Part shown: positions 5,584 through 60,645 of the stretch, in pieces
How positions within the stretch are numbered: position 1 is the stretch's first letter
Layout of the letters: each line of letters opens with the position of its first letter
NCBI GenBank assembly: GCA_013204395.1
Contig: JABMNZ010000003.1
Span: forward strand, 13,570-77,569
DNA length: 64,000 bases
Reading direction: 5' to 3'
DNA from: Parcubacteria group bacterium
GTDB taxonomy: Bacteria; Patescibacteriota; Patescibacteriia; UBA9934; GWF2-40-263
Position numbers and translations under genes: made by a program
Notes under the pieces: generated by a model
Told to the model about the DNA's origin: nothing
What the model saw: only the letters and a program-made list of their open reading frames with translations
Databases searched by the model: none

Positions 5584-6297
5584 TTAACCAAACAGCGGCC
5601 AAAAGTTGGCATTGGTGTACTTGTTGTAAAAGACGGAAAAGTTTTGCTTGGCAAACGAAAGGCTTTAAACGGCGCTGGCACATGGAGTCCTCCTGGTGGG
5701 CACTTAGAGTTTGGTGAGTCATGGGAAATGTGTGCGGCAAGAGAAACGCTTGAGGAAGCTGGAATATCAATCAAGAACTTAAAGTTTTTTACGTCGACCA
5801 ATGATATAAGACTTGATAAGGGCACTCACTACACCACGATTTGGATCTTGGCAGAGTACGCAGCAGGAGAAGTGTGTAATCGGGAACCAGAAAAATGCGA
5901 AGGCTGGGATTGGTTTGTGTGGGAGCAAATGCCTCGACCATTGTTTCAACCAACCGAAACTATTGTCCGACAAGGCTATCACCCTCTCTCTGTCTGTCAC
6001 GATAAGTTAGTTCGCGACAAACTCCCAGAAATAATCGAATCTCATGGAGACGTGGCTATTACCCATGTGGCTGACACTGGTGAGTATCGAGACCGACTTC
6101 GGGCAAAACTGATAGAGGAAGTTAGGGAATATATTGAATCCGGAGAAACTGAGGAGCTCGCTGACATCATTGAGGTCATCCACTCACTCACGGCCCTAGA
6201 CGGAACACACCGAGAACAGCTCCAACTCATACAAACAAAAAAACACGACGAGCGCGGAGGTTTTGAAAAGAGAATAGTTTTAGATCAGACGAGATGA
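5551..6297 (+). CDS. NUDIX hydrolase fused to a MazG/HisE-like NTP pyrophosphohydrolase domain
   Basis: Nudix box GGHLEFGESWEMCAARETLEEAGI (GX5EX7REUXEEXGU) in the N-terminal half. The C-terminal half (LVRDKLPEIIESHGD...EELADIIEVIHSLT) resembles MazG/phosphoribosyl-ATP pyrophosphatase helices. Confidence 0.65.
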   Translation: MIENSQEQDNHLTKQRPKVGIGVLVVKDGKVLLGKRKALNGAGTWSPPGGHLEFGESWEMCAARETLEEAGISIKNLKFFTSTNDIRLDKGTHYTTIWILAEYAAGEVCNREPEKCEGWDWFVWEQMPRPLFQPTETIVRQGYHPLSVCHDKLVRDKLPEIIESHGDVAITHVADTGEYRDRLRAKLIEEVREYIESGETEELADIIEVIHSLTALDGTHREQLQLIQTKKHDERGGFEKRIVLDQTR

Positions 6298-20640: not shown

Positions 20641-20722
20641 CAGGTTTGTACAGATTTTTGCGACGTTGTTTCATTGACATGACCTCTCTCCTATGGCTTA
20701 CTTCCCTCGGAATGGAGAAAAG

Positions 20723-22162
20723 ATGAAACCCAACCCAAGAGACCGAGCCTTCCTCATGGCCCTGGATTCGATGAATGATCCCCACCTCCCGTGGGGACTG
20801 CGATTCTCCATTTTGCAGGACGATATTCCGGAAGGATACTTCGTCCGAAATGGTCACAGCGAATTCATGCGCCATTTCTGGGCAACGCTCTCACTCGCAC
20901 TCCCTGGCTCTGCACTGGAAATGCGTCTATTTGAGAAGCTCTCGCTGCCAAACATGGGTGCAGTTCCAACCTGGATCTCCGTGTGCGGACCCACGAGCTG
21001 GCCGGTGTTCTGGGTACACGTCATCCTGCGCAGCGATGCGCGGGGAGGAATTCACACCCTGGCCGTGCAGCGTCTACGCACCGTGACCGGAGGTACCGCC
21101 GAGCTTTGCACCGCCGCAACAGAACTCGCCAGACAAGACGGCAACGAGCAGCTCGTCGCACGACTGCGCACTGAGGCCATAGAAGTCGCAACAGACTGGT
21201 GGGAATGGAAGTTGATCATCGGCATGGAAACGGACGTGAGCGCGGATGCCCGCGTCAAAGCCCTCCAGCAACTTCGAGAGCTTCCAGTGGAGCGTGACGG
21301 GCTCGAACCATCCCTCAGCACAGCCGATCCAGAAGTCAGGCTGATCGTGATCGATCGTCTGCTCGAGACCTTCCCCGAGCGACCGGACCTCTGGCGGAGG
21401 CGATTCCTGACGGTTAGTCCGCCTGATGAACGCTACCAATGCTGGATCAAGTTCCTGTCGGTGACCCCCCCAGCCCATGAGCTGACAACCGTTCTGTTCC
21501 ACGTCTGGAACAACAAGCCAGAGCGCGCACGGTGCCTGGAGGCCATCGAACACCTCGATGCACAATGCCCTGCGTGGATCTATGCGCACTCTGCCAGCTA
21601 CGGAGCGCCCCACGATGACCCCAAGCTTCACTCCATCAGAGAGGTGATCTGGCAACGGATCTTCGCCACGGCACAGTCCTGCCATGACTGGTGCCAGTTG
21701 ACCAGGTTCATGAGAAGGCGCCACGAACAAGGCCACCCTCTCGTGAACGAAGCTTTCGAGAAGGCCCTAGATCTGGCCGAAAACTTCGAAGAGCTCTCGG
21801 ACGTGTACAGCCTCTGCCTGCATGAAGTGGCAGATGGCCATCATCGGCGAACCGAACACGACCCAGCGCGCGCACAGGTCATCCAAGGACTCCTTGTTCG
21901 GATGGAAGAGATTGGAGCCTTTTGGGACTACTGGAACGGACATCATCTACTGATGTCCGACAGGCTCTCCAGGATCGTTTGCTTGGCCAGCACCCCGTCA
22001 CAGATGGGGTTGGTCTACAACAGGCACTTCCAACTGCCTTACCAACGTGATGACAATCGAGAGCTCTACGACGAGCTTCTGCGACGCATGCACGCTGCTG
22101 GGCCCTCGTTGGTCACCAGCTTCCTTCCCAAACCAGCAACCGAGGCTCAACCCCGAACCTAA
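20723..22162 (+). CDS. GC-rich hypothetical protein
   Basis: The start was trimmed to MKPNPRDRAF with a ggagaaaag RBS. It is about 480 aa, helical, and rich in Arg/Leu/Trp with Leu-rich repeat-like segments. Codon usage is distinct from its neighbours. No family recognised. Confidence 0.5.
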   Translation: MKPNPRDRAFLMALDSMNDPHLPWGLRFSILQDDIPEGYFVRNGHSEFMRHFWATLSLALPGSALEMRLFEKLSLPNMGAVPTWISVCGPTSWPVFWVHVILRSDARGGIHTLAVQRLRTVTGGTAELCTAATELARQDGNEQLVARLRTEAIEVATDWWEWKLIIGMETDVSADARVKALQQLRELPVERDGLEPSLSTADPEVRLIVIDRLLETFPERPDLWRRRFLTVSPPDERYQCWIKFLSVTPPAHELTTVLFHVWNNKPERARCLEAIEHLDAQCPAWIYAHSASYGAPHDDPKLHSIREVIWQRIFATAQSCHDWCQLTRFMRRRHEQGHPLVNEAFEKALDLAENFEELSDVYSLCLHEVADGHHRRTEHDPARAQVIQGLLVRMEEIGAFWDYWNGHHLLMSDRLSRIVCLASTPSQMGLVYNRHFQLPYQRDDNRELYDELLRRMHAAGPSLVTSFLPKPATEAQPRT

Positions 22163-58701: not shown

Positions 58702-59374
58702 TATGCAGGCAGTCATACTCGCTGCGGGCAAAGGCGCACGCCTGCGTCCCGTTACATACACCACCCCCAAACCTCTCATTGATCTGTGTGGAAAGCCACT
58801 CATCGAGCATGTGCTCAGCGCACTGCCAAAAAGGATCGATGAGATTTTTGTTGTCGTAAACCACTTGCGAGATCAGATCATCGAGCGCTTGGGAGAAAAC
58901 TGGAACGGGGTGCCGATCAAGTACGTCGATCAAGAACCTCTCTCTGGTACAGCGGGTGCCGTGCATCTTCTCAAGAATCATCTGAGGGGGTCTTTCCTCG
59001 TCGTTAACTCTGACGACATTTACCAAGCTGAGGACCTTGCTCGTTTGGTAGAACACCCTATGGCCATGCTCTTCCAAAAGTCCGACTCTGAAAAAAAGTC
59101 CGGTGCGCTTGTTAGTAATGGTCGGTTCACAGGTCTTGGTTTAGGAAACAACGCTGTGTGCGGCGCGTACGTGCTGGACCAGAGCTTTTTTTCAATCGAG
59201 CCCGTTGAAATTCACGTGAGTGAGTTCATTGAACTTGGCTTACCACAAACACTTGCCGTGCTCGCCACAAGCGAAACAATCGCCGCTGAGCCCGCAACAT
59301 CCTGGATCCCTGTGGGGAATCCAGAGCAACTTGCGCAAGCTATCCACCGGATTTCTGGACAAGTCTGTGGATAA
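58694..59374 (+). CDS. Sugar-phosphate nucleotidyltransferase (NTP_transferase family)
   Basis: MQAVILAAGKGARLRPVTYTTPKPLIDLCGKPLIEHVL is the G-x-G-x-R signature. It overlaps the prfA end by 8 bp. Confidence 0.8.
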   Translation: MANMQAVILAAGKGARLRPVTYTTPKPLIDLCGKPLIEHVLSALPKRIDEIFVVVNHLRDQIIERLGENWNGVPIKYVDQEPLSGTAGAVHLLKNHLRGSFLVVNSDDIYQAEDLARLVEHPMAMLFQKSDSEKKSGALVSNGRFTGLGLGNNAVCGAYVLDQSFFSIEPVEIHVSEFIELGLPQTLAVLATSETIAAEPATSWIPVGNPEQLAQAIHRISGQVCG

Positions 59375-59424
59375 CATTGGGTCAAAAAGATAAAACCTAG
59401 AAAAAATGGGCGTGCGGTGGCCCT

Positions 59425-59455
59425 TGACACATTTTTTCTAGAGAGTATCGTAGTC
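59425..59455 (+). promoter_or_regulatory. Candidate sigma70-type promoter for the large ncRNA
   Basis: TTGACA (59425-59430), a 16-17-nt spacer, then tatcgt/tagagt -10-like hexamers. Confidence 0.35.
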
Positions 59456-60608
59456 GTTACCGCTGACTGAACGGAACACCTGATTTAAGAGAACGGGCTT
59501 GCCCGGTCCCTGACGTCGAGTGTGACAATCAGACAGAACAGCAGTGAACAGTTGGATGAGGAACCTCGGTTCCATTGATCCTCTGGAAGGCGCCGAGACC
59601 TCGGTTAGACGCGCTCTCCTCAACCACTTCGGTGGATCTGTAAACTGTGCACCCGTAGCAAAAGGACGTTGAAGTGAAGCTTGCTTCACAAAAACTCTGT
59701 TAAAAAGACTGCAAAGACTTCGGTCCCAAACAGACACTGTAACCAGTACAACCGCAAGGTTGGTCCAGTAGCTGCAAACCGTCACGGATGAAAGTATCGG
59801 CTTGCCGAGACTGGATGAAGTGACAGATCGATAGATCGTTGAGGCATGCTACGGCGTGCCAGATGGCCATCACAACTTCCAGAACAACGAACTGGTTAAC
59901 AGTACGGAAGTGAAAAAGGTATAGATCTCGAGGCCTCGGCCAATTGATCCAGCTCTGCCAGAGCATGAAAAAAACCTTTGAGATGGAGAGCCAAGCAAGT
60001 GAGTCCTTCTGGGCAAGCAAGCTATGGTGCAACGATCTATTGATCAGACGAGGAAGAACTGGGTAATACCAGAACTGAATCGTCACCCTCCCCTGTAGAT
60101 CCAGGAATACTGGCTGAGTCCAAAAGTCGGCGAAAGTCGGACTGAAACTCTTCTACAGGAACCTGTGAACAACTCGATGATTTGAAGTGACTAATGGGGA
60201 AACCTGGATGTCTAACCACTCAGACCAGACCTTCGGGAATGGAATGAAAGGTCAACTGATCTGAAATGAGTGTTGTGCCTACCACAATTGGCAAAGCAGT
60301 TCATGGGAGCGACGGAGTTGGTGAGGTGTTTGAAAACGAGAAGAGGCATCCTTCGGGAAGTCAGACACTCGCTACGAGCGCCTTGCCACTCCGGCGTTGA
60401 GGAGGAATCCTTCGGGGTTCCAAAACACCGAGACTATCCGCAAGGAGAAACCTCACCCAACCGGAAGAGGTTGCCACGCAACCCGATCCACGTCGCCGCT
60501 TCACAGCAGCGACAACGCTTAGTCCAAATCCCAAGTGCGACCCCCCCCGCACTCAAGACAAGGACAACGCCGGACCATCAGCTCATAGAGCCTGGTCCGT
60601 TTTCTTTT
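59455..60608 (+). ncRNA. Candidate large (about 1.15 kb) highly structured non-coding RNA of unknown class
   Basis: No credible ORF on either strand, only short overlapping frames. Five C(UUCG)G tetraloop hairpins are present (59624-59636 ccacttcggtgg, 59715-59726 gacttcggtc, 60227-60236, 60348-60358, 60407-60417). Additional hairpins include ggaacc-tcg-gttcc, ggcc-tc-ggcc, ggcatgc-tacg-gcgtgcc and gtgaagc-ttg-cttcac. It is GC-enriched relative to its neighbours and ends in an intrinsic terminator (ggacca...tggtcc followed by gttttctttt, 60573-60608). Confidence 0.55.
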
Positions 60609-60645
60609 AGACAACTTTTACTTTTGTCTGCTACTGTTCGTTTCA

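Follow-up and report, generated by a model that had tools for sequence, protein, structure and literature searches.

A candidate gene for a large structured noncoding RNA, with a DnaA box at its promoter, upstream of prmC in Candidatus Uhrbacteria

What occupies the gap between a nucleotidyltransferase gene and prmC in a 64,000-nt stretch of DNA from a Parcubacteria group bacterium (contig JABMNZ010000003.1)? The whole stretch is called the window here, and coordinates given without a locus name are window positions on the forward strand unless stated otherwise. The nucleotidyltransferase gene (an NTP-transferase gene, here the NTase gene) occupies 58703 to 59374 and prmC starts at 60645, leaving a gap of 1,270 nt (59375 to 60644), in agreement with the 1.27 kb given in a preliminary description of the same DNA. 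We consider it likely that an independent gene lies in this gap and encodes a large, highly structured noncoding RNA (ncRNA) of a previously undescribed family, the gene having its own promoter and terminator and a DnaA box at the promoter.

Relatives of the locus were gathered by a PrmC scan of genomes and metagenomes and by a look-up of PrmC homologues (loci are designated by L and a number). The closest PrmC relatives all came from metagenome-assembled genomes labelled “Candidatus Uhrbacteria,” Parcubacteria, or Patescibacteria. About 25 Uhrbacteria loci have a gene-free spacer of 0.5 to 1.4 kb between the NTase gene (or prfA, if the NTase gene is missing) and prmC.

Coding signal, hairpins, and covariation in the gap

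The preliminary description had found no credible coding frame in the gap, and comparison with relatives bears this out. The open reading frames (ORFs) in the gap have no Pfam matches and are not conserved in relatives. Between the window and its closest relative (L049, 83% identity), mismatches in the gap are spread over the three codon positions as 67/65/64, and 17 of the 18 indels have lengths that shift the frame; the corresponding counts for the flanking genes are 15/8/117 (prfA), 17/10/75 (NTase gene), and 27/15/115 (prmC), with zero indels. Two more sequence pairs gave the same noncoding pattern in the gap. A protein-coding gene or pseudogene, possibly with an alternative genetic code, could be sought in a 125-codon open frame running from 60270 into prmC, in minus-strand ORFs of 115 and 128 amino acids, or in one frame that is open for 236 codons if TGA is read as sense. 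The even spread of substitutions, the frame-breaking indels, and the lack of Pfam matches and conserved ORFs all speak against these frames; a coding reading is effectively refuted, and its probability is virtually nil.

The gap is rich in a hairpin signature. The hexamer CTTCGG occurs at 59627, 59718, 60231, 60351, and 60410, which accounts for 5 of its 12 copies in the window, while none of the 15 copies of the reverse complement, CCGAAG, falls in the gap. The enrichment is strand specific and ∼35-fold: the rate outside the gap (7 per 62.7 kb) predicts ∼0.14 copies within it (Poisson P of ∼4e-7 by our own arithmetic). Every one of the five copies lies between complementary arms, for example, CCAC-UUCG-GUGG and GGAAUCC-UUCG-GGGUUCC, and the earlier count of at least five cUUCGg hairpins therefore holds. 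The GC enrichment described at the same time, for a genome taken to be low in GC, was overstated: the genome is not low in GC, and the difference between the gap (51%) and the whole window (47%; flanking genes, 44 to 52%) is marginal.

The main evidence for a structured RNA comes from covariation, which the preliminary description had proposed as a check and which was found in two independent lineages, in hairpins and long-range helices alike. First, five sequences (group A, alignment A3: the window, L049, L050, L052, and L002) with 68 to 89% pairwise identity align as conserved blocks interrupted by lineage-specific hairpins. Their RNAalifold consensus has 252 pairs, with 91.2% of cells paired, and 68 pairs are changed on both sides, compared to 32.2 ± 4.0 in shuffled alignments (0 of 500 shuffles reached the observed number) and to 5 to 12 when the 3′ partners were slid by 1 to 3 columns. 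Second, the consensus of an independent lineage (group B: L003, L005, L007, and L054) has 141 pairs, 95.6% paired, with 26 double-sided changes compared to 10.6 ± 2.3 in shuffles (again 0 of 500) and 1 to 6 with slid partners. Third, the hairpin at 60349 to 60358 carries a UUCG loop in the window, GAAA in L049, and GCAA in L050; exchange of UUCG and GNRA tetraloops at the same hairpin is typical of structural RNAs.

Transcription signals and the DnaA box

The TTGACA/−10-like promoter of the preliminary description was found again as a predicted sigma-70-type promoter (59424 to 59451) in which TTGACA (−35, 59424 to 59429) and TATCGT (−10, 59446 to 59451) are separated by a 16-nt spacer. It matches 10 of 12 consensus positions and was the sole site found in the promoter scan. 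CCTTGAC followed by a TAnnnT −10 at 16 to 19 nt is kept in all element-bearing loci. A 12-nt perfect inverted repeat, CTAGAAAAAATG / CATTTTTTCTAG (I3, 59397 to 59441), encloses a GGGC...GCCC hairpin and the −35 and overlaps the RNA promoter; it is likely to terminate the prfA-NTase operon. A similar arrangement is seen in relatives, where TTGAC of the −35 lies in or beside a GC hairpin that is followed by a T-run (e.g., GGCCTTGACGGCCTTTTTT in L027).

At the other end, the clean intrinsic terminator expected before prmC is present at 60570 to 60608: CGGACCA pairs with UGGUCCG (60571 to 60599) and is followed by UUUUCUUUU (60600 to 60608). Its loop is an interrupted 15-nt inner hairpin (AGCUC-AUA-GAGC), which is why a simple terminator scanner missed it; the terminator was read from the sequence. 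It is conserved with covariation in relatives (helices 43 and 44), and a hairpin with a T-run stands at the same place in most element-bearing loci, the automated call of the end having failed for L027 and L020.

The prmC ribosome-binding site that had been placed after this terminator did not hold up: there is no Shine-Dalgarno sequence, and a predicted extended −10 of prmC, TGCTACTGT (TG-C-TACTGT, 60629 to 60637), is found instead, 7 nt before the ATG at 60645. The motif TGnTAnnnT lies 6 to 8 nt before the prmC ATG in the window, L002, L003, L007, L024, L032, and L054 (in L003, L007, L032, and L054, the extended −10 reads TGCTATACT) and follows the terminator T-run in L007, L017, L019, L020, and L054. 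In element-bearing Uhrbacteria, prmC mRNA is thus probably leaderless. The conserved promoter and terminator, together with the separate extended −10 promoter of prmC, indicate that the predicted RNA is its own transcription unit.

Some relatives have low-complexity or repeat inserts between the RNA terminator and prmC, namely, a C/T-rich insert of 165 nt in L006 (5836 to 6000), CTACTAT repeats in L038 (∼2400 to 2476), a palindromic AAGGTGG.../...CCACCTT in L054 (3452 to 3584), and GGCCGCGAGG repeats in L018 (5908 to 6000).

The main rival to an independent RNA gene is a giant cis-regulatory leader, or attenuator, of prmC, in which transcription would begin at the strong upstream promoter, the RNA would sense a signal, and the terminator at 60570 to 60608 would either form or be read through into prmC. 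The element invariably lies just upstream of prmC, the terminator ends 37 nt before the ATG, and groups A and C share an unusually well-conserved sequence in the terminator region. Moreover, UCCGGCGUUG (60390 to 60399, in the 3′ strand of the base of domain D6, described below) is a 10-nt perfect complement (I4) of CAACGCCGGA (60565 to 60574), which overlaps the 5′ arm of the terminator and so could serve as an antiterminator. Against this, one 10-nt complement in 1.4 kb is close to chance expectation by our estimate, its sole variable position is uncompensated (C in the window, A in L049, and U in L050), and in group B it is cut to 6 bp or absent. The conserved extended −10 so close to the ATG gives prmC a start of its own, leaders of 0.5 to 1.3 kb would be unprecedented, and in relatives that lack the element, prmC is translationally coupled to the NTase gene and needs no such control. 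We regard attenuation as unlikely. The same 10-nt complement could alternatively be a tertiary pairing.

An independent RNA gene is also suggested by what lies upstream of its promoter. A perfect DnaA box (59366 to 59374; TTATCCACA on the reverse strand, TGTGGATAA on the forward strand) overlaps the final codons of the NTase gene, including its TAA stop, and precedes the −35 by 49 bp. No second perfect match occurs in the window, and the gap itself contains no box with one mismatch. A perfect box occurs once per locus, just upstream of the RNA promoter, in 24 element-bearing loci (L032 has one mismatch). None was found in element-less loci or elsewhere in the ∼440 kb of fetched flanks, where ∼3 are expected by chance. 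In a prospective test, three loci that were fetched later (L053, L054, and L055) had exactly one box each, at the same place.

The box is found in either orientation, and its distance from the −35 falls into classes of 8, 16 to 17, 27 to 29, 38, and 48 to 49 bp. With a period of ∼10.2 bp, the box keeps to the same helical face with respect to RNA polymerase. A second half-box lies 11 bp away in group C, and L055 has an inverted pair. DnaA acts as a transcription factor in bacteria. The RNA promoter looks like a DnaA-modulated one, and the RNA gene is probably controlled by DnaA.

The same box could instead mark a chromosomal DnaA-related DNA element, such as a secondary origin or a titrating or reactivating site, with an incidental transcript. 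The phased box kept in every copy, the half-box of group C, and the inverted pair of L055 would fit such an element. The locus, however, offers just one or two boxes and lacks an AT-rich unwinding region. GC skew there is monotonic (negative on both sides of the element, with no sign change), and selection on RNA pairing over >1 kb is not something that a DNA-level element needs. This explanation is very improbable. The locus was also considered as oriC and rejected, given one perfect box without a cluster, 51% GC in the gap, and negative skew on both sides.

RNA domains, distribution, and family membership

The predicted RNA of ∼1,150 nt (59458 to 60608) would start ∼7 nt past the −10, at GUUACCG, and end in the U-run of the terminator. 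It is predicted to fold into about eight domains, the helices of which are kept by compensatory substitutions. D1-D2 (59458 to 59650, helices 3 to 9) begins with the near-invariant 5′ GUUACCG, which is found, exactly or as a close variant, directly after the −10 in most loci. It consists of nested hairpins, including one with a CUUG loop at 59494 to 59505, and its compensatory changes include CG to UA and UA to CG (alignment columns 24/98 and 25/97) and GGGC/GCCC to GAGC/GCUC. The following segment (59651 to 59778) is a lineage-specific insertion with hairpins (including GACUUCGGUC and CCGCAAGG) that appears as alignment gaps and is absent from L002 and L052.

Helices 10 to 21 span D3 (59779 to 59825) and D4 (59826 to 60045), and 5 pairs of helix 12 in this region show double-sided changes. 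A 16-bp long-range helix (59826 to 59841 with 60030 to 60045; inverted repeat I2, 94% complementary) closes D4, the inner motif of which, CAYCAGAAYU...GUGAAAGAAGGUAU...AAAAACCUUCG, also occurs in another sequence group (nhmmer, L008 and L027). A variable region (60046 to 60159), with ∼150 extra nt in L049 and mostly missing from L050, separates D4 from the multibranched D5 (60160 to 60309, helices 25 to 31), which is closed by CCUGUGAAC / GUUCAUGGG and includes the CC-UUCG-GG hairpin at 60230 to 60237. D6 (60308 to 60398, helix 32) is a long hairpin of 23 pairs. D7-D8 (60399 to 60569, helices 35 to 42) contains GGAAUCC-UUCG-GGGUUCC (60404 to 60421), GGUUGC..GCAACC, GUCGC..GCGAC, and GUCC..GGAC; in helix 36, 5 of 7 pairs are changed on both sides.

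The base of D6, (A)NCG..GGAG.UGGUG ... CACCA.CUCC..CGUU, is the family-wide core, with a weaker GGCG/CGCC variant in L017 and L018; over all sequence groups, the base recurs as (A)NCG..GGAGG.UGGUG / CACCA.CCUCC..CGUUGGA. The D6 architecture was found in 15 sequences of five sequence groups, with inner helices that differ in sequence yet are complementary, and its folding z-scores range from −2.9 to −8.1 in 12 sequences. MAFFT with RNAalifold yielded no consensus for the cross-group D6 hairpins, full or trimmed, as bulges shift the register. Support for D6 across groups consists of per-sequence folds, z-scores, and shared end motifs, with no covariation count, and is weaker than the claim within groups.

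The 5′ GUUACCG, an A-rich CAAAAGC...GUYC stretch, the D6 hairpin, and the terminator recur in all sequence groups. The conserved core comprises the 5′ GUUACCG, the D4 inner motif, the D6 hairpin, and the 3′ hairpins, to which lineage-specific helices capped by UUCG or GNRA loops are added. A search for a helix involving GUUACCG that would close the 5′ and 3′ ends gave only two or three unconvincing pairs.

The 3′ strand of the D6 helix in L008, L027, and L032 contains CACCUCC, a match to the 3′-terminal anti-Shine-Dalgarno sequence of 16S rRNA. In L008 (∼5845 to 5975), the D6 3′ strand AUCACCUCC pairs with AAGGAGGU in the 5′ strand; a weaker version, GGAG/CUCC, is found in the window. The match may be a coincidence or a mimic of the Shine-Dalgarno/anti-Shine-Dalgarno helix.

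Among relatives, the homologous element is ∼0.5 to 1.3 kb long, with natural short versions of ∼530 to 560 nt in L018 and L008. The spacer sequences are chained together by blastn, which indicates that they are homologous but fast evolving. Single-sequence nhmmer and blastn searches reached the closest relatives only, and a profile nhmmer search added one motif in group C, with matches in L008 and L027. A covariance model of group A D5 and D6 (R1) gave weak, correctly placed matches in L024, L007, and L027; its 248-bit match to D5 of the window is self-recovery of a seed sequence and adds nothing independent. The family is too divergent for a model built from one lineage. It has so far been found in “Candidatus Uhrbacteria” only, within the Candidate Phyla Radiation (CPR)/Patescibacteria.

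The element is apparently accessory, since many close relatives are without it at this locus. About 15 loci of close relatives have no spacer, and in some of them the stop codon of the NTase gene and the start codon of prmC overlap as ATGA, or prmC directly adjoins prfA. Presence is patchy even between sister taxa: in a neighbor-joining tree of PrfA and PrmC, L008 has the element and its sister L021 does not.

Two spacers of other kinds were seen. In a more distant Uhrbacteria lineage, the spacer of L022 (4697 to 5926; also L045) contains a 409-amino-acid ORF with an N-terminal signal-like sequence, which replaces both the RNA and the DnaA box. In L044 (2260 to 2748), a GC-rich NTase-prmC spacer of 486 nt has a terminator-like end but lacks a DnaA box, and similarity to the element was not detected; this spacer is a highly diverged member of the family or of another kind altogether.

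Patchiness among sister lineages and a clean junction where the element is absent, with the ATGA overlap, would also be expected of a mobile or selfish element or its remnant at the NTase-prmC junction, whether a degenerate ORF-less intron or a small integrated replicon whose origin is RNA primed and contains a DnaA box. A DnaA box beside a long structured transcript does recall the RNA-primer origins of plasmids, such as that of ColE1 with its RNA II. The element is nevertheless single copy and always at the same locus (neither the window nor any flank was found to contain another copy). Terminal repeats, direct or inverted, are missing from it, and no transposase, reverse transcriptase, or Rep gene is associated with it. 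Element sequences cluster like their hosts, which fits vertical descent with losses. Searches by blastn of phage and plasmid collections found no similarity to it, no Rfam intron model matched it, GC skew keeps its sign across it, and the one DnaA box is not part of a cluster. A mobile origin is improbable. A group II intron was considered separately and rejected: there was no match to Intron_gpII or the D1-D4 models and no reverse transcriptase ORF, and the element is single copy and intergenic, with its own promoter and terminator.

The Rfam search proposed in the preliminary description was run on the window and on nine relatives and matched the element to no family. Rfam 15 (4,227 models) should include OLE, GOLLD, ROOL, HEARO, raiA, RNase P, transfer-messenger RNA (tmRNA), 6S, SRP, and group I and II introns; the accessions of the first three are RF01071, RF02032, and RF03087. 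At gathering thresholds over the whole window, there was no family in the gap. At an E value of ≤10, the gap had three chance matches (a CRISPR repeat, an L2 leader, and a human long ncRNA; E values of 0.28 to 6) far below gathering, and at ≤1 the loci of the nine relatives gave nothing relevant. Full-text searches of the literature library turned up no report of an RNA of this kind.

A very divergent or expanded RNase P RNA, tmRNA, 6S RNA, group I or II intron, OLE, GOLLD, ROOL, HEARO, or raiA RNA might escape its model. The element is within the size range of OLE, GOLLD, and ROOL, and insertions in structural RNAs are known in CPR bacteria. The absence of any relevant Rfam match in the gap or in the nine relatives argues against this, as does the absence of the element from close relatives: an essential RNA must be present, unless it has moved elsewhere. 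Universal presence is expected of a housekeeping RNA, and in a scan confined to the loci the element was absent at the prmC locus of ∼15 relatives. There is scarcely any probability that a known family is hidden here. The suggestion of an undescribed ncRNA in the size range of OLE, GOLLD, and ROOL is thus supported, with none of the three findings that had been named as speaking against it (a significant Rfam match, a conserved ORF with homologues, or hairpins without covariation or conservation) being made. Features that the preliminary description had not noted are the DnaA box, the patchy and lineage-restricted distribution, the strong variation in length, and the leaderless-type promoter of prmC.

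The genes around the gap are ordered rpmE, prfA, NTase gene, gap, prmC, with rplY, ftsW, and gyrB as further neighbors, which puts the candidate RNA gene between two genes of translation termination. The sole Rfam family in the window is a ribosomal protein L10 leader (RF00557; 13266 to 13383, reverse strand; 49.1 bits, compared to a gathering threshold of 44). ARAGORN found no tRNA gene in the window; it called a permuted tmRNA at 20774 to 21381 (reverse strand; tag AFPVQSQGVRVRALPRNGA), which is unrelated to the gap RNA and almost certainly a false positive, since it lies inside a 489-amino-acid ORF (20693 to 22162, forward strand) and no Rfam tmRNA was matched even at an E value of ≤1. The segment 62580 to 62739, where a DUF3048 gene meets the repetitive 3′ end of rplY (EGEAPAEGEA repeats), is predicted to fold much more stably than its shuffled versions on either strand (z of −6.7 and −5.6).

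Proposed role and comparison with known systems

We propose the following mechanism. (i) DnaA binding would modulate, and probably activate, transcription of the RNA. (ii) The amount of RNA would then follow replication or cell cycle status. (iii) The RNA would act in trans as a structural or scaffold RNA, in a ribonucleoprotein or an RNA-only assembly, rather than as an mRNA leader. A trans-acting structural role is favored by analogy with other large ornate RNAs and by the separate promoter of prmC. We see about an even chance that this is a new Uhrbacteria-specific class of ornate RNA of 0.5 to 1.3 kb, a cell-cycle-coupled structural RNA in ultrasmall bacteria, wired to DnaA by a phased, high-affinity box. 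If so, we know of no earlier case of a large ncRNA belonging to a DnaA regulon.

Several points weigh against an independent ncRNA gene of this kind. That there is a transcript, where it starts and ends, and how abundant it is are all predicted, and the indication of function is drawn entirely from context. By minimum free energy z-score in arbitrary 160-nt windows, the gap lies only moderately below the flanks (−1.70 and −0.68, respectively), which is why covariation has been given most weight here. Outside D6 and the 5′ and 3′ ends, the groups are joined by weak sequence links. The element is missing from many close relatives and so may be nonessential, or it may lie elsewhere in those genomes. 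The constant position of the RNA directly upstream of prmC means that it may act in cis. Finally, TTATCCACA is presumed to be the DnaA box of Uhrbacteria because it is that of bacterial DnaA in general, and this consensus may not be that of the host.

Besides rRNA, RNase P, tmRNA, and self-splicing introns, we know of fewer than about ten classes of bacterial RNA longer than 500 nt, and OLE, GOLLD, ROOL, HEARO, and other such classes have each opened new biology. The gap RNA would be among the longest candidate bacterial ncRNAs outside rRNA, and it comes from a poorly understood phylum. CPR bacteria have genomes of ∼1 Mb, so that maintaining a 1.15-kb RNA is costly for them, and it should therefore matter to its carriers. 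The phased DnaA box would link it to replication or cell cycle control, and variants with and without the element enable comparative tests. Its distribution is narrow and patchy and its hosts are uncultivated, and the alignment and domain map are sufficient to seed a covariance model.

Like OLE (∼600 nt), the gap RNA is large, multidomain, highly conserved, restricted to one lineage, noncoding, and located among housekeeping genes, and the biochemical function of OLE was likewise long obscure. OLE, however, occurs in anaerobic extremophilic Firmicutes and is cotranscribed with the gene of its partner OapA, whereas the gap RNA has its own predicted promoter and terminator and a DnaA box. The gap RNA is also twice as long in the window, varies ∼2.5-fold in length among relatives, and does not match the OLE model.

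With GOLLD and ROOL, the gap RNA shares very large size (∼580 to 800 nt in those classes), an ornate fold with tetraloop-capped helices, and a patchy distribution. GOLLD and ROOL form RNA-only multimeric assemblies according to one cryo-electron microscopy report (PMC12286853). Those RNAs are typically found in prophages or beside tRNA genes, in contrast to the gap RNA, which is chromosomal and syntenic between prfA or the NTase gene and prmC. It has no tRNA gene within its 64 kb, no similarity to phages or plasmids, and no match to either model.

ColE1 RNA II resembles the gap RNA in being long (∼550 nt), highly structured, transcribed from its own promoter, and associated with replication, with a DnaA box in the origin region. 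The gap RNA differs in having no plasmid context, plasmid similarity, or origin signature. Its DnaA box is upstream of the promoter rather than 3′ of the RNA, and a strong terminator ends the predicted transcript.

The closest parallel to the upstream region is offered by DnaA-regulated promoters, e.g., those of dnaA, nrdAB, and mioC in Escherichia coli and of the Bacillus subtilis regulon, in which one or two TTATCCACA boxes likewise lie near a sigma-70 promoter at constrained positions. The targets of those promoters that are known to us are protein coding, whereas the predicted target of DnaA regulation in Uhrbacteria is a large ncRNA.

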